Shown piece after piece: positions 8,502 to 14,289 of a stretch of DNA of 64,000 bases (positions are counted from its first letter, which is position 1; each line of letters opens with the position of its first letter). Below the pieces are notes generated by a model, which saw nothing but the letters and a program-made list of their open reading frames with translations, did no database searches and was not told the DNA's origin. The DNA lies in the IMG/VR virus record IMGVR_UViG_3300022555_000009. One strand, 5' to 3'. Both the position numbers and the translations under genes were made by a program. The DNA is from a virus.

Positions 8502-8508
8502 ACTAATT
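8502..8508 (+). promoter_or_regulatory. ACTAATT promoter, 7 nt before an SD-less ATG
   Basis: Sequence is ACTAATT-TGGAACG-ATG. Confidence 0.65.
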
Positions 8509-8515
8509 TGGAACG

Positions 8516-8959
8516 ATGTACCAAAACCCCAGAACTCTATTTCAGCAGCGTATAAATGGTCTTCTAAAAGATCCGGAATGTTCTCCTATGTTTGAGGATA
8601 TCTTTAAATTGCTGCAGTTATATGCCTTAGAAAAATTAACGCCCAATAAGCCTGATGAGTCAAACTGGAAAACTCTGTTGCTTATGTACGAAGAACTAGG
8701 CCCATCTGGGATGGCTAAGCTCGTGTCCTTGGCTAAAGGCAAAGCCATAACTTTCCCTACAGAAGAAGAGTTTCAAGACTCTGTAATAACTACTTTAAGT
8801 TATTACTATAAGGAAGTAGAGAATAAGAATTGGGACGAAATTAAAAAGATACTGAATCAGCCGGATCTGAATACTATTAAGTTCGGCATTCGCGTACGGA
8901 ATTTCTCGACGTTTATAAATGAACAGTTGTTGAAAAAATTCAAGAAGGTAGAAATATGA
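8516..8959 (+). CDS. Hypothetical protein, possibly Mor-like DNA-binding
   Basis: 147 aa ORF containing LAKGKAITFPT and a helical C-terminus. Confidence 0.6.
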   Translation: MYQNPRTLFQQRINGLLKDPECSPMFEDIFKLLQLYALEKLTPNKPDESNWKTLLLMYEELGPSGMAKLVSLAKGKAITFPTEEEFQDSVITTLSYYYKEVENKNWDEIKKILNQPDLNTIKFGIRVRNFSTFINEQLLKKFKKVEI

Positions 8960-9432
8960 AAAACAAAGATTTAGAGGACGCAAAAAACATGTTAACTGCT
9001 ACGTTGGTGGAATCCACTAAAACACCAACCTTATACGACCCTTCTACAGAAGTAGAGAGATCATTATCTAGCTTTCTTCAACATAGGCTGACCAAATTGC
9101 AGGAGGACGCTTCAAGAGAAGAAACTATATGGGAGGCTATAACAGAGAGAGTCTCTGAGTTCAATCCTGATCAGCTAATGAGGCTTCTAAATATTCTACA
9201 AGAGAATAGTAACTCAGGCGTTGAAAAAATCCTGAGTCCTTTCATTCCGAGAGCAGGGGAAAGAATTCCCCTCTTGCCTGACAACTCAAAGAAGAGTAAG
9301 GATATCGTCGAAGAGACAATATTCAATGAGTCTGGTAAAGATTTGATGGAGGCCTTTTCCGAATTGAACTCCCTAGTGAGGGAAATGGCTAAGACAAGAG
9401 AAACTGAGGATATAAAGAAAGTACTGTCGTAA
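8956..9432 (+). CDS. Hypothetical helical protein
   Basis: 158 aa ORF with an ATGA overlap. Confidence 0.7.
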   Translation: MKNKDLEDAKNMLTATLVESTKTPTLYDPSTEVERSLSSFLQHRLTKLQEDASREETIWEAITERVSEFNPDQLMRLLNILQENSNSGVEKILSPFIPRAGERIPLLPDNSKKSKDIVEETIFNESGKDLMEAFSELNSLVREMAKTRETEDIKKVLS

Positions 9433-9446
9433 AATATACTTTTCTG

Positions 9447-9550
9447 TATCTTTAGAAAGGAGGTGATCCTAATCTAAAGGTGACGAAAATGTACAAAAAT
9501 AAAAGGTAGGAATATGCTAAGAGGCTCTCTGAAAAGAGAGCCTCTTTTTT
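9447..9550 (+). ncRNA. Candidate small RNA with perfect 17-nt complement to the 16S rRNA 3' end
   Basis: TATACT -10-like box at 9435-9440. TAGAAAGGAGGTGATCC (9453-9469) lies within a hairpin (CTTTAGA 9450-56 / TCTAAAG 9473-79). The element ends at a strong terminator. Confidence 0.45.
9519..9550 (+). terminator. Rho-independent terminator between convergent genes
   Basis: AAGAGGCTCTCT-GAAA-AGAGAGCCTCTT plus a T-run. Confidence 0.9.
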
Positions 9551-11366
9551 ATACACTACTCATCTCAAATATCATCTTCGCTGTATTACGATCTAAGTAC
9601 TGTTGAGTACCGAACTTTTTAGTTGTGAAGTCCTTATCTTCCAAATTCATATCTCGAACACAATCTAAGGAGTTATCAATAATTAGGAGATAGGTGTACA
9701 CCGTCTTCTGTTGCCCAATACGATGAATACGAAATATAGATTGGTTATACTCTGTATAATTCCAGGTTCTATCAAAGTAAATAGCTATATTAGCCTCAAC
9801 AATAGTCACGCTGCTATTAAGAACCTGTATGCCCGCAATAAGAATATTGCGATCTTTCGAGGCTTGAAAATCTGCTATGATATCTGCCTTGAATTCATCC
9901 AGGGTCCTCCCCTTCGGTACTTTGACTTCCCCGTTGATGAGATAGGGCTGCCTCTTTTCTAAGATTACCGCCAGTTCTTGACCGACTGTAGGATGAGAGC
10001 ACCATATAATAATTTTTTCGTTAGGATGCTTTTCTAAGAGATCATCCAAAGCTCCCATCTTACAGTGATTAGAGAACTTAAATTTTTCGACCTTGCGAAT
10101 AAGATTGTCTGGTAACTTTGTTTCATGGTTTAAAAGTAAGCTTGGATTATCGATGGCTAAGGAGAGATAGGGGAAAGAATTAAACACAGCTCGAGAGTCT
10201 ATGCCTCCGTAAAATTCTTGTATGGCTCGTAGTTTTTCTACAACGATTCCTTGGTAGATTTCCTTCTGCTCATCAGATAGCTCCACATAAATCTTCTGTA
10301 TGAAGTGCTCAGGCAACTCCAAAACGTCGTCAGCAAATCTTCGAGTAGACACTGATTTTACAATATCAGCCATCTCTATAAGTTTATTGGGTTTGAAGTA
10401 ATTGATAGCATATAAAGAAAATCTATTGCCAGTATCTGCATACTCTTGTAGCCACTCGAAGTAAGAGAAATTCTTTACTAAGGCGGGATCTAAGAACTTC
10501 AGCTGTGAGTAGTACTTCTCTTCTCTGTCTGCAGGAGTTCCTGTTGCAATGTATCTATACTGAAAGAAGGGAGCGGCAAGGTGTATGGCCTTAGATTGCC
10601 TGGCTTGAGGATTCGCGATATTATGTGATTCGTCCAGGATAATGATGCCAACATCTCCCTGAAGCCAATCTCGAAAGGGAATAGGACACTTACGATAATT
10701 CTTTGAATTGGATATCTCTTCCTGATACTCATCAGATACTAAGAGGAAAGATCGGTAGCTGCAGATGACAACATGAGATTTCACGTCGTCAAAAGGTCGC
10801 CGGTTTTTAATTCCCCCAACTCTAACATCTGATGAGTCATAGTTAGAAAATCTCCCCAGTTCTCTCTTGATATTGTAAGTGCCAGACCCTGAGGTAATGA
10901 TAAGTACTTTTCTGACGTCTTTGTATTTACGGAGTAATTCAAGGGTGTTACATAGTATCCAGCTCTTCCCGGTACCTTGTTCATTAAAAAGAGCATATCG
11001 GTTGTAACTGGAGCATTTAGATAGGTCTTCGAGTTGGAAATATTCATGCGGCGCCTTCCCCATAATGGGTTGTACTTTTAAATCATCTTTAGTAAAAGGA
11101 ATTCTTTGAAATTCGATCGATCTCTTGGGAGTCTTCAATATCTCTATCTGAGACCATACTTCGTTTGTAATATAAAGTTCTTCTACGTCTCCCAAAGCGT
11201 CTATGACAGAGTCATAAACAGACGTCGGAATACACCACTGTTTACTCTTTGGTTCAAACTGACATCGATATCTCTTATATATAGTAAGATCTGTATCGAA
11301 GGCGTTGACCGAGAATAATTGACTGGCATATATTTTATCGTCGCGAACTAGAATCTGAATGCTCAT
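9549..11366 (-). CDS. SNF2-family (SF2) helicase/translocase
   Basis: EQGTGKS (Walker A), ILDESH (motif II), ATGTP (motif III) and QSIFRIHRIGQ (motif VI). Confidence 0.92.
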   Translation of the reverse strand: MSIQILVRDDKIYASQLFSVNAFDTDLTIYKRYRCQFEPKSKQWCIPTSVYDSVIDALGDVEELYITNEVWSQIEILKTPKRSIEFQRIPFTKDDLKVQPIMGKAPHEYFQLEDLSKCSSYNRYALFNEQGTGKSWILCNTLELLRKYKDVRKVLIITSGSGTYNIKRELGRFSNYDSSDVRVGGIKNRRPFDDVKSHVVICSYRSFLLVSDEYQEEISNSKNYRKCPIPFRDWLQGDVGIIILDESHNIANPQARQSKAIHLAAPFFQYRYIATGTPADREEKYYSQLKFLDPALVKNFSYFEWLQEYADTGNRFSLYAINYFKPNKLIEMADIVKSVSTRRFADDVLELPEHFIQKIYVELSDEQKEIYQGIVVEKLRAIQEFYGGIDSRAVFNSFPYLSLAIDNPSLLLNHETKLPDNLIRKVEKFKFSNHCKMGALDDLLEKHPNEKIIIWCSHPTVGQELAVILEKRQPYLINGEVKVPKGRTLDEFKADIIADFQASKDRNILIAGIQVLNSSVTIVEANIAIYFDRTWNYTEYNQSIFRIHRIGQQKTVYTYLLIIDNSLDCVRDMNLEDKDFTTKKFGTQQYLDRNTAKMIFEMSSV

Positions 11367-12160
11367 TGGAGATTATGCTCCTTGAAATATTTTCTCCAGT
11401 CTACGCCGCCTTTATAGTACTCCCCCTCACGAGGATCTGCGATAACAATATCTACTGTCAAAGGAACACCCTTCTGCCAGGGTTCCATTCTTTCAAATAT
11501 TTCTTTGATCTTGGCTATCACCTCTTTCATTTCATTATCCCAGATAATGAAATCTACAGAGTCGTGAACCATACCTTGTATATAGGATTTAATATTATTG
11601 GCTTCTTTCCAGATTTGGAAATCGACCATGCAACCCATTACTTTACAAGCCTCATCATTTTGAATAGTCGTGTTGGCTAAGATATTATAAAGGCCCGCTA
11701 CTTCTTTTCTATCCTCATCCTTACCTTTTAGCATAAGAACTGGCGTTCTGCGAATTGCTCCGTGGTAAGAACGAACATATCCCTGCTCCTCGCCTATCTG
11801 CTTATTACGCTCAATGCGATCAGCAAGTCCTTTATATGTCTTAAAGAATTGGTCTCGAATATAATCAGCGACCGTAATGTAGCCCCACATTTTAGGTTCT
11901 ACATCTTTATACTTCTTAGCAATATTAAATTTCTTGTCGTAGAGCTGAAATTCCTCTATGAAGTCGTCGACCTGCTCTTGCGTCCATTTTACAGATAAAG
12001 TAGTCTCGGCGAATGTTATGGAAGCCATACCGAATAAAAATCCGAAGTTAACTGCTTTCGCCATTTGTCTGTATACATCGTAAATGTTATCTTTCTGGCG
12101 CAGTCTCTTAAATTCAATTTCTGTTATGGGCCTCATGACTTTTCTATGTGTGATTTTCAT
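11363..12160 (-). CDS. polA: Family A DNA polymerase, C-terminal fragment (motifs B and C only)
   Basis: RQMAKAVNFGFLFG (motif B), GYVRSYHGAIRR, NTTIQ and MVHDS (motif C). Motif A and the exonuclease domain are absent. Likely start is the ATG at 12160. Confidence 0.88.
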   Translation of the reverse strand: MKITHRKVMRPITEIEFKRLRQKDNIYDVYRQMAKAVNFGFLFGMASITFAETTLSVKWTQEQVDDFIEEFQLYDKKFNIAKKYKDVEPKMWGYITVADYIRDQFFKTYKGLADRIERNKQIGEEQGYVRSYHGAIRRTPVLMLKGKDEDRKEVAGLYNILANTTIQNDEACKVMGCMVDFQIWKEANNIKSYIQGMVHDSVDFIIWDNEMKEVIAKIKEIFERMEPWQKGVPLTVDIVIADPREGEYYKGGVDWRKYFKEHNLQ

Positions 12161-12201
12161 ATAGAGAATATATGAATCAGCCTTTGTATATATTGGTCCA
12201 T
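12161..12201. promoter_or_regulatory. 41-bp divergent promoter region with a TATATT box on each strand
   Basis: TATATT lies 6 nt before the polA-C ATG and 7 nt before the sbcC ATG. There is no SD on either side. Confidence 0.55.
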
Positions 12202-14289
12202 ATGACAATACTAAAACTTGAGCTTGAAAACTTCATGAACATAGCTAAAGCCGACCTAGATTTTAAAAACGGCATAAATGTTATTTCGGGAAAAAATGGA
12301 GCAGGAAAAAGTGCTGTGCTTGAAGCTATCGCTTTCTGCATGGTTGAACGCAGAAGAGGGGACTCTTGGAAAGACTACATCAGGTCCGGAACAACAGGAT
12401 TTAAAATCCACCTACTCATACAAAAGAGTGCGGCAAAAGCGGATGTCGTTGAATTCAGATATGAAGGTAATATAAAGCAAGGCGCGACCAGTAAGCAAAT
12501 TATCTACCAGGGTAAGACCTATGTGAATTCGGAGTGCTCTGATTTTATAAAGGACACCTTTGACTCCGAAATGTTGGAGAATATTATTTTTACCCTACAG
12601 GATAGTAAACCAGTCACTCACCAGACTCCTCTGGAGCGTAGGACCATATTTAAGAAAATATTCAATTCTAATTTCACAACCGCTGTTGAGAAAATTAAAG
12701 CGGATATTGAACAAAAAGAGGCTGAAAGCACAACCTTAGCATACGAGATAAATGCCATTAAATCCAAAACTTATCCTAAGGTGAGATTAGAGAGTATGGA
12801 TCCTCAGGAATTGAGTGTCTATCTTACAGAGCAATCTAAGATAGAAGATAAGATGAAAGAATCTACGTTCGATAATGAATTTAATACCCTCTACCTGAGC
12901 AACCGAGAAGTCTTCGAAAAGTATGTGTTGCCTTCGTACCTAAATACTAGGGATGATGTAACGAAGCTTGAGAAAGAAATCGGAGATTCTCTAGTGAAAA
13001 CAGAATTCTGCGAACGCGACATACGAGCTGGTGAAGCACGGCTTAATACTTTAGATATAAATATCAGTGGGCTCAAGCTCAAAATAGAAGCTCTTGAAAA
13101 ATCTCTGGACTCTGAGAGTGATTCTATAGGAGACCTTGAAAAAACTTTACAAGGTTTGAGAGCCCGTATCCGGGAAGCTCAGGTGCTTAGGTCCATCTCC
13201 AATACACATTTGGAAACACATAAGAAAGGTAAGTGCGATGCTTGTGGGCAAGATTGTGATATAACAAGGATCCAGGAGTTAGAGACCGGGGTTAAAGTTA
13301 TTTCTAGGCACATTCAGGATTTAATTTCTGATGAAAATCAGGTTACGGCCCAGCATACTTCCTGTGTAGCGCGTGTTAAAGAGATCGGTAAAACCTTAGA
13401 TGACTTAAGGAATACTCTTTATCGTGAGAATGTGGGGGTCGAGAAAACAACAAAAAATCTTGAAAATAATCGACGTGAAATTACCCAGGATAGGCTATCT
13501 ACGCAGAGTCTACAAACGATTTTACAAGAGAAAACAAGAGAATTATGTAGAATAGAACCCGAGGTCGATCAGAAAGAAACATGGCTCAAAGAGAACGAAT
13601 CTCGATGGCAGGCCTTAGAAACTTCTGATCCAGCTATTTATGAAGAACAACTGAAAGGCATACGCGCTAAGATTCAGGATTATAATCAAAGATTGACATC
13701 TAGGTTAGAGCGAGAAGCTTTCAACAAGAAGCTAGATGAGCAGATTCAAAAAGATTCTGACCAGGTGCAAAAGCTATCTGAGAAGATAAATACTCTAGAC
13801 TTAGAAATCAAAAATCTCGAGTTCGTTAAGATGTTCTACGAGACTACGTTTCCCAATTTTATCAACTCAAAGGCCTGTACCTTACTGGAGTCTTATATGA
13901 ATAACTTCCTCAGCACAACTAAGGAGGGATTCCAATTTAAACTTTTGTCCACGAAGAAAGGTATAGACTTTTTATATAAGGCAGACCCCGCGTCAGAATG
14001 GTTGAATGTTAAGTTAGCCTCTGGTTTTGAAACTTCGGTATCTAATCTAGCTTTTAAATGTGCCGTGGCTTTTTCATACCAGTCTGGACTTTTGGTTCTC
14101 GACGAGCCTGACGCATACAGTTCTGAGTCTAATAGCGAGCGGTTATTTGAAACCTTGACCAGTATTAACGACGGATTTGAGCAGATGATTATCATTACGC
14201 ATAAGACTCAGGCTATGGAATTCTTAAAGGAGAACGGCGCCAATATTTATAAAGTTACTGATGGAGTCTTCGAGCAATCTGCTGACTAA
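12202..14289 (+). CDS. sbcC: SbcC/Rad50-like SMC ATPase (gp46-like)
   Basis: LELENF, GKNGAGKS Walker A, long coiled coil with CDAC zinc hook, ASGFE signature, LVLDEP and IIITH. Confidence 0.92.
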   Translation: MTILKLELENFMNIAKADLDFKNGINVISGKNGAGKSAVLEAIAFCMVERRRGDSWKDYIRSGTTGFKIHLLIQKSAAKADVVEFRYEGNIKQGATSKQIIYQGKTYVNSECSDFIKDTFDSEMLENIIFTLQDSKPVTHQTPLERRTIFKKIFNSNFTTAVEKIKADIEQKEAESTTLAYEINAIKSKTYPKVRLESMDPQELSVYLTEQSKIEDKMKESTFDNEFNTLYLSNREVFEKYVLPSYLNTRDDVTKLEKEIGDSLVKTEFCERDIRAGEARLNTLDINISGLKLKIEALEKSLDSESDSIGDLEKTLQGLRARIREAQVLRSISNTHLETHKKGKCDACGQDCDITRIQELETGVKVISRHIQDLISDENQVTAQHTSCVARVKEIGKTLDDLRNTLYRENVGVEKTTKNLENNRREITQDRLSTQSLQTILQEKTRELCRIEPEVDQKETWLKENESRWQALETSDPAIYEEQLKGIRAKIQDYNQRLTSRLEREAFNKKLDEQIQKDSDQVQKLSEKINTLDLEIKNLEFVKMFYETTFPNFINSKACTLLESYMNNFLSTTKEGFQFKLLSTKKGIDFLYKADPASEWLNVKLASGFETSVSNLAFKCAVAFSYQSGLLVLDEPDAYSSESNSERLFETLTSINDGFEQMIIITHKTQAMEFLKENGANIYKVTDGVFEQSAD

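Follow-up and report, generated by a model that had tools for sequence, protein, structure and literature searches.

The gap between two convergent genes of an uncultured large phage contains a conserved, strand-specific, non-coding structured element that is an extreme outlier in its complementarity to the ribosome: a hairpin carries a perfect 17-nt complement of the 16S rRNA 3′ tail, and no usable start codon follows it. We tentatively favor the reading that this is a 3′ UTR, or an RNA derived from one, that docks the 30S subunit without productive initiation and probably acts locally on the fate of the RNA. If such docking is true, phages hold an RNA-only means to hold, sense or protect host ribosomes.

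Locus and sequence elements

The window, by which we mean the whole 64,000-nucleotide stretch of phage DNA that was analyzed, has a G+C content of 41%, and no tRNA or tmRNA was found in it. A 170-kb contig encodes a protein identical to one of this phage. The 3-kb stretch around the element had no nucleotide match in the phage collection. The element occupies a 116-nt gap bounded on the left by the stop codon of a 158-aa gene (9430–9432, + strand) and on the right by the stop codon of an SNF2 helicase gene (9549–9551, − strand). The surrounding genes and signals are as follows.

8502–8508, + strand: ACTAATT promoter-like motif, 7 nt before the ATG of the 147-aa gene; no Shine-Dalgarno (SD) sequence
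8516–8959 and 8956–9432, + strand: two-gene operon encoding 147 aa and 158 aa, respectively; the element forms its 3′ end
9549–11366, − strand: SNF2-family helicase gene, convergent with the operon
11363–12208, − strand: stand-alone DNA polymerase A C-terminal gene, directly upstream of the SNF2 gene

Judging from its start, the operon at 8516–9432 itself looks leaderless, and the ACTAATT motif with its 7-nt spacing before the first ATG is kept in a related contig, L001. The same motif recurs 5–10 nt before start codons of the window, often in near-leaderless genes without an SD (for example, before 27023, 50334 on the − strand, and 59771 on the − strand), and is absent from the 116-nt gap. 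For neither protein of the operon (147 aa and 158 aa) did Pfam, PHROGs or the Atlas suggest a useful function, with the exception of one weak lead: the 147-aa protein (8516–8959, + strand) resembles Mor-type transcription activators in structure and features (TM 0.54; Atlas score 0.82). Some further observations concern the neighborhood in relatives. The C-terminal-only polA gene is separate in relatives down to 52% identity (L001 4173–4994, L002 4207–5004, L003 4222–4998). Near its SNF2 gene, the related phage contig L003 encodes a protein with Ro60/TROVE and vWA domains (9500–11080); the usual partners of Ro60/TROVE proteins are Y-like RNAs. A contig from the same phage population (L002 1–360) carries a radical-SAM gene with a weak match to an intein-splicing domain.

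Within the gap, the following parts were recognized, all on the + strand.

9437–9493: hairpin displaying the SD, from folding and a three-lineage alifold consensus
9437–9444/9485–9493: outer stem, extended in this genome, burying the mini-ORF AUG at 9489
9447–9456/9473–9482: conserved stem, from the alifold consensus
9453–9469: orphan super-SD TAGAAAGGAGGTGATCC, perfect 17-nt complement of the 16S rRNA 3′ tail
9458–9461/9467–9470: weak apical stem, predicted fold
9462–9466: open loop GGUGA, predicted fold
9472–9477: AUC-UAA, a near-cognate codon 8 nt after GGAGG with a stop immediately next to it
9476–9483: second SD-like sequence, AAAGGTGA / AAAGGUGA, within the 3′ arm of the stem and 5 nt before the AUG at 9489
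9489–9509: mini-ORF of 6 codons, AUG UAC...UAG, encoding MYKNKR and a stop
9508–9516: AGGAAUAUG block, an SD-like AGGA with a second AUG; in each of the three lineages it lies 4–9 nt ahead of the terminator stem
9519–9546, with a T-run to 9552: intrinsic terminator, 12-bp stem and 4-nt loop

The sequence TAGAAAGGAGGTGATCC is present at 9453–9469 on the + strand and matches the exact reverse complement of GGATCACCTCCTTTCTA at 17 of 17 positions, as the original prediction had claimed. A perfect 17-mer of this kind is expected by chance about 7e-6 times in 64 kb, counting both strands. We scanned both strands (~128,000 positions; mean −5.0, s.d. 2.8) for duplex energy with the assumed tail GGAUCACCUCCUUUCUA and obtained −31.1 kcal/mol for the element compared with −18.6 for the runner-up. 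No other site in the window, on either strand, comes within fewer than two mismatches of the 13-mer core. The claim that the match is far longer than any ribosome-binding site (RBS) of the window is likewise borne out: the real ones are short (AGGAG, AAGGA, GGAGG), lie 4–9 nt before their start codons, and accompany about three-quarters of the window genes, late genes included. A captured 16S fragment was considered and rejected, as the similarity ends at 17 nt and the sequence beyond is not helix 45.

The predicted fold agrees with the hairpin first proposed around the 17-mer, including the stem, the apical stem and the GGUGA loop, and the 65-nt hairpin has a folding z of −3.9. The bases of the SD in the loop are predicted to be unpaired. 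Opening the 17-mer would cost 9–13 kcal/mol, while the duplex with the 16S tail would yield about −29 to −30, which leaves a computed net of −16 to −20 kcal/mol, well past an ordinary RBS. Because this net pairing stays strong even after the hairpin is opened, binding of the anti-SD tail would be the most economical reading.

No ATG, GTG or TTG is usably spaced after the 17-mer, in line with the initial description. The nearest AUG, that of the mini-ORF, lies 25 nt away. At the distance of a start codon stands AUC (9472–9474), which is part of both a conserved AAUCUAA block and the 3′ arm of the stem; in each of the three lineages, 7–8 nt separate AUC-UAA from GGAGG. The second SD, the mini-ORF and the 12-bp terminator that had been described are all present. 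The terminator was detected for the + strand only, and its T-run and the SNF2 stop codon overlap.

Conservation, coding potential and strand

The SNF2 and 158-aa proteins each have one close relative outside this phage population, encoded by L001 (SNF2, 70% identical) and L011 (158-aa protein, 71–73% identical); the identity of flanking proteins is about 65–73% overall. Both contigs have the same convergent gene order, and the element is conserved in both. The phage itself is present, with an identical gap, in about ten contigs that came from different samples. The pairwise identities below compare three independent sequences, the window, L001 and L011.

17-mer: 15–16/17 (88–94%)
3′ arm through AUGUACA: 81–88%
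AGGAAUAUG: 9/10
5′ flank: 38–54%
Terminator sequence: 41–59%
Third codon positions of the neighboring gene: 37–46%

These contrasts indicate that the 17-mer and the two blocks downstream of it are held by selection on sequence. The terminator varies in sequence and yet retains its hairpin and T-run in all three lineages; it is maintained by compensation, with selection acting on shape. The 5′ arm of the stem varies freely, whereas the 17-mer does not. Only two substitutions occur in the 17-mer, both A-to-G (L011 has GGGGG for GGAGG, L001 has UGG for UAG), and both keep a G·U pair with the 16S tail as well as with the hairpin partner. This pattern is suggestive support for pairing, with a chance of about 1 in 5 if transitions only are considered. 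Covariation is thin, with one compensatory pair among the three sequences.

The element is absent from relatives at 47–53% protein identity: L009 has a 36-nt gap with a terminator only, the two genes overlap in L003, and L012 has an unrelated AT-rich gap of 266 nt. The element is thus a clade-specific, dispensable addition. When a covariance model made from the sequences of the three lineages was run against the window and 22 further loci, no second copy turned up; the only matches were weak and partial, at L005 and L004, both of which had been retrieved by sequence pattern. Nothing in Rfam reached threshold (the best match, Phe_leader, at 26.4 bits, fell far short of the gathering score, 55), and nothing like the element was found in phage databases.

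A protein-coding role for the gap was rejected on several grounds. Every frame contains stops, and, whichever AUG they start from, the ORFs differ among lineages in frame and length, those from the second AUG, in AGGAAUAUG, differing in frame and content as well; the 17-mer is therefore not the RBS of a protein-coding gene. The mini-ORF is not a conserved peptide either, since its length is 6 codons in the window and 12 in L001, whereas in L011 it exceeds 24 codons and runs through the terminator, and the peptides share only MY. What is conserved is CGAAAAUGUACA as sequence and not the peptide that it encodes. A hydrophobic 30-aa ORF at 9514–9606 was dismissed as a type I toxin, for it crosses the terminator and differs in frame and content in L001 and L011.

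The original prediction had placed the 17-mer in a separate sRNA gene of ~100 nt behind a TATACT box. The box does exist (9435–9440). However, no −35 partner goes with it, L001 and L011 do not conserve it, and no sigma-70-type promoter was found in the gap. Of the marks of an sRNA gene, the element has an intrinsic terminator of its own and probably lacks its own promoter. As neither the TATACT box nor the 5′ flank (38–54%) is conserved, a separate gene is not supported, and a 3′ UTR belonging to the operon at 8516–9432 is the likelier identity of the RNA. A candidate promoter on the − strand (TTGTAC, 14 nt, TAGATT) was also discarded; its spacer is too short and its −35 is not conserved.

In all three lineages, the + strand folds 3–6 kcal/mol better than the − strand. 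Canonical pairs number 16, 16 and 14 of 17 on the + strand compared with 13, 12 and 12 on the − strand, a count biased by the consensus having been predicted on the + strand. Each sequence has 3–4 G·U pairs in the consensus hairpin, which become A·C mismatches on the − strand. Together with the one-way terminator, the better predicted folding and the G·U pairs are evidence that points to the + strand RNA as the functional form.

An SD-AUCU pattern at other loci

A search of IMG/VR for the SD followed by AATCTAA retrieved the same 20–24-nt motif in non-coding gaps at operon ends of other contigs. In these look-alike viral contigs, the flanking proteins had no homology to those of this phage, and Rfam gave nothing at threshold at the sites. 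To avoid circularity, a pattern-independent sample was taken with the bare 14-mer AAAGGAGGTGATCC, which comprised at least 118 viral loci among the matches listed (IMG/VR L055–L170). After de-replication, 24 of 50 non-coding 14-mer sites among the matches listed had ATCT starting 0–4 nt after GATCC, where 3% is expected from the rate further downstream (binomial P ~2e-23). An open start codon behind the 14-mer was seen in only 10 of these 50 listed sites, and among the same listed matches on viral contigs the perfect 14-mer is commoner as an orphan than as a working RBS; L004, L005 and L036–L054 are further loci of this kind. True start codons behind the same 14-mer occupy the same offsets as AUCU. 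That nearly half of the listed non-coding sites carry AUCU suggests a common signal overlooked by gene callers and RNA-family libraries.

Some of the orphan 14-mers in unrelated viral contigs lie at operon ends before hairpins or terminators, and among the matches listed there are 8 orphan sites that have a strictly called terminator no more than 80 nt away, of which 7 contain ATCT. The AUCU sites fall into two sub-types, AUCUCC and AUCUA, several with a terminator stem within 8–17 nt. The window element shares AUCU at start-codon distance, as AUC-UAA, in all three lineages.

Neither of two explanations of AUCU survived. As a true start in the wider class AUC was excluded, the resulting ORFs being mostly 1–30 codons and unconserved, and a role of AUCU in masking the SD was discarded after a shuffle test gave no excess pairing. 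Pairing of AUCUA with the 16S platform loops would be speculation; the flanks do not extend that match. It is conceivable, though on balance doubtful, that the element belongs to a widespread, undescribed class of phage (perhaps also bacterial) non-coding RNA in which a full complement of the 16S tail, followed 1–4 nt later by AUCU, would form a non-initiating 30S dock for sensing or holding ribosomes at operon ends and before terminators.

An exact-motif scan of JGI metagenomes found L004 as its only contig, and a first exact-motif scan of bacterial genomes found no match. With the bipartite pattern itself as the query, bacterial genomes yielded many sites, which are heterogeneous. A common downstream gene was ruled out for them, since the genes varied and included Lnt, a ferritin-like protein, a phage scaffold and a release factor.

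Three groups of sites were observed alongside. In the first, the 14-mer and A-GTG-ATC-TCA-TTG lead into a conserved ORF of ~21 codons (MISLS...) with a GUG start, in Caulobacterales/Brevundimonas and other Alphaproteobacteria (L181–L184, L194, L196, L206, L216, L240, L242 and others); as read from its sequence, this site is a genuine RBS, serving a small peptide that is not annotated. Contigs of Binatia and Myxococcales have comparable MIYLS ORFs. The next is a conserved non-coding block in which the 14-mer is followed by UAU-AUCUAGCAUAGAAAUAGGAGCCUCC, in KSB1, Calditrichota, Cytophagia and other MAGs (L180, L185, L193, L228, L243, L263). Here, a CCUCC farther downstream offers the SD a pairing partner, with a small hairpin enclosed between them; there is no Rfam match, and in two loci the block lies 280–340 nt upstream of ferritin-like genes. 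The last comprises an orphan 14-mer with AUCUCCC and a hairpin, 95–156 nt upstream of a capsid scaffold gene (DUF4355/Gp46) in a Lachnospiraceae prophage and viral contigs (L217, L168, L066, L163), an arrangement that fits a putative 5′ stabilizer of a highly expressed late message.

Proposed function and comparison with known systems

From the sequence, structure, conservation, strand preference, thermodynamics and lack of a conserved ORF described above, we infer the following course of events. The + strand transcript of the operon at 8516–9432 would have its structured 3′ end in the gap (9433–9552), and a stable 3′-derived RNA of about 100–120 nt may be released from it. The apex of the hairpin would present the full-length complement of the single-stranded 3′ tail of 16S rRNA, so that a 30S subunit could enter via the exposed GGUGA loop and zip up 15–17 bp with its anti-SD tail. 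With AUC-UAA in place of a start codon, the subunit would be held without productive initiation. The docked 30S, the hairpin and the terminator would then act in cis on the same RNA: the subunit may block nucleases, as it does at orphan-SD stabilizers, or may govern access to the two conserved SD-AUG motifs downstream, beside the terminator. The thin covariation and the absence of the element from relatives at 47–53% identity weigh against such a dock, as do two further points. Known stabilizers protect RNA downstream of the 30S, whereas here no cistron follows, and a benefit in cis for the upstream genes is therefore not obvious. Also, 30S docking alone does not explain the conserved blocks between hairpin and terminator; a search for trans targets of these two single-stranded blocks found no meaningful sites in the window.

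The original prediction had instead proposed that the RNA acts in trans, an abundant decoy occupying the anti-SD tails of free 30S subunits and shifting translation from SD-led (host) to leaderless phage mRNAs; in a variant of the idea added here, it would protect the 3′ terminus of 16S rRNA against tail-cutting toxins or 3′ exonucleases. Complementarity to the last base of the tail in all three lineages, the strong net binding energy, the leaderless look of the carrier operon (with ACTAATT 7 nt before its ATG, also in L001), and a hairpin and terminator that would give a stable fragment are all consistent with this, and RNase R is reported to begin 30S decay at the anti-SD tail (PMC10901742). 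However, some three-quarters of the window's phage genes have an SD of their own, late genes included, so a global block would hurt the phage. Titration would also need a copy number near that of ribosomes from an element that is present once in 64 kb, has no conserved promoter of its own, and is dispensed with by close-enough relatives. No precedent for a ribosome decoy was found in a full-text literature search. We consider the decoy distinctly unlikely, and the proposed global damping of SD-led translation was not supported. Somewhat less improbable, yet still unlikely, is control of the terminator in the manner of an attenuator, where a 30S at the super-SD would open the stem and free the second SD and AUG, and initiation at the two SD-AUG motifs would mask the 5′ arm of the terminator; as part of that same unlikely reading, read-through into the antisense of SNF2 and polA-C would depend on ribosome availability. 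It would account for CGAAAAUGUACA and AGGAAUAUG being conserved as sequence while their peptides differ, for the first AUG being buried in the outer stem in the window, and for ORFs that enter or cross the terminator in L001 and L011. The layout also gives weak matches to leader and attenuator models (Phe_leader, 26 bits against 55), and in unrelated contigs the terminator stem often starts 8–17 nt after the 14-mer, within the footprint of a 30S. On the other hand, the window mini-ORF ends 10 nt short of the stem, 55 nt separate the super-SD from the terminator, the Rfam scores are far under threshold, and downstream there is no + strand gene to control, only the antisense of replication genes.

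The remaining alternatives give the 16S match less weight or another meaning. The gap could be a protein-binding or structural 3′-end element, such as a GGA sponge for a CsrA-like protein or a 3′ stabilizing hairpin, with the 16S match as a by-product. Three GGA-containing motifs are indeed conserved (the apex, AAGGNG and AGGAAUAUG), and the hairpin alone could halt 3′ exonucleases after cleavage in the AU-rich spacer, but a 15–17-nt 16S match kept in three lineages amid scrambled non-coding neighbors exceeds what GGA motifs or a stem need, which makes this quite improbable. If the opposite strand were the functional one, the 3′ UTR of the SNF2 mRNA would form a hairpin with the 16S tail GGAUCACCUCCUUUCUA reproduced in its loop and, as a mimic of the anti-SD, would bind SD regions or a tail-binding protein. 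The SNF2 gene lacks a good terminator, so its transcript probably crosses the gap; the hairpin forms on the − strand too, and the single-stranded conserved blocks are not assignable to a strand. This is nevertheless very unlikely in our estimate, as the − strand makes 12–13 of the 17 pairs against 14–16 and folds 3–6 kcal/mol more weakly, both substitutions break identity with the 16S tail (giving CCCCC in L011), and the terminator functions for the + strand only. It is hardly credible at all that the site has no function, being a relic or a strong RBS arisen by chance, or that it simply serves as the RBS for a genuine small protein. The mini-ORF has its own SD-like site downstream of the 17-mer, and distant relatives do without the element; against this, conservation far above neutral expectation largely refutes the idea, the peptide is not conserved in length or sequence past MY, the 17-mer lies 25 nt from the mini-ORF AUG, and its duplex energy is an extreme statistical outlier.

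Several known systems share single traits with the element. Leader-peptide attenuators such as Phe_leader (RF01859) also combine a hairpin, an SD, a tiny ORF and an intrinsic terminator; the element differs in having no run of regulatory codons, no conserved peptide and no downstream gene, and in scoring 26.4 bits against 55. In the start-stop mini-ORFs known from ribosome profiling, a ribosome is similarly held at a start codon with a stop directly after it; in the cases known so far that codon is AUG, whereas the codon here is AUC. The polypurine stabilizer of phage SP82 is an intergenic phage example of a ribosome-binding stabilizer. The 3′ UTR of Staphylococcus aureus icaR is reported to carry an anti-SD-like UCCCC motif that pairs with the SD of its own 5′ UTR (PMC3868564). 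Both are 3′ UTR elements that use SD/anti-SD complementarity, but icaR carries the anti-SD and the element the SD, for which the window holds no complementary partner. The extended SD of rpsU (bS21) in Bacteroidia, as described in PMC7797042, resembles the element in its unusually long complementarity, used there for sensing the state of the ribosome; it drives a real gene. The ordinary SDs of the other phage genes argue against a Bacteroidota host.

The closest likeness is to STAB-SD, the start-less SD of the Bacillus thuringiensis cry3A (cryIIIA) 5′ UTR, and to those of the B. subtilis hbs and aprE leaders, where a bound 30S is reported to shield the RNA (PMC4113751, PMC5737220). Like STAB-SD, the element is complementary to the 16S 3′ end and has no start codon at a working distance. 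STAB-SD, however, sits near the 5′ end of a message and guards a downstream cistron from 5′-to-3′ decay, while the element follows the last gene, with only a terminator and antisense sequence beyond. The match of the element also spans all 17 nt of the tail, against about 9 nt in that group, and the element is placed on the apex of a conserved hairpin that is followed by AUC-UAA and two SD-AUG blocks. By this comparison, it would work like an orphan-SD ribosome dock and not as a member of the STAB-SD group, with only a terminal fragment of ~90 nt downstream to protect. Orphan SDs are already known as 5′ stabilizers in a few Gram-positive messages; an arrangement in which a conserved full-tail complement sits on a hairpin where a phage operon ends, without any coding sequence behind it, has not been described. 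The kind is thus known, and the position, the length, the display on a hairpin and the co-motif are new.
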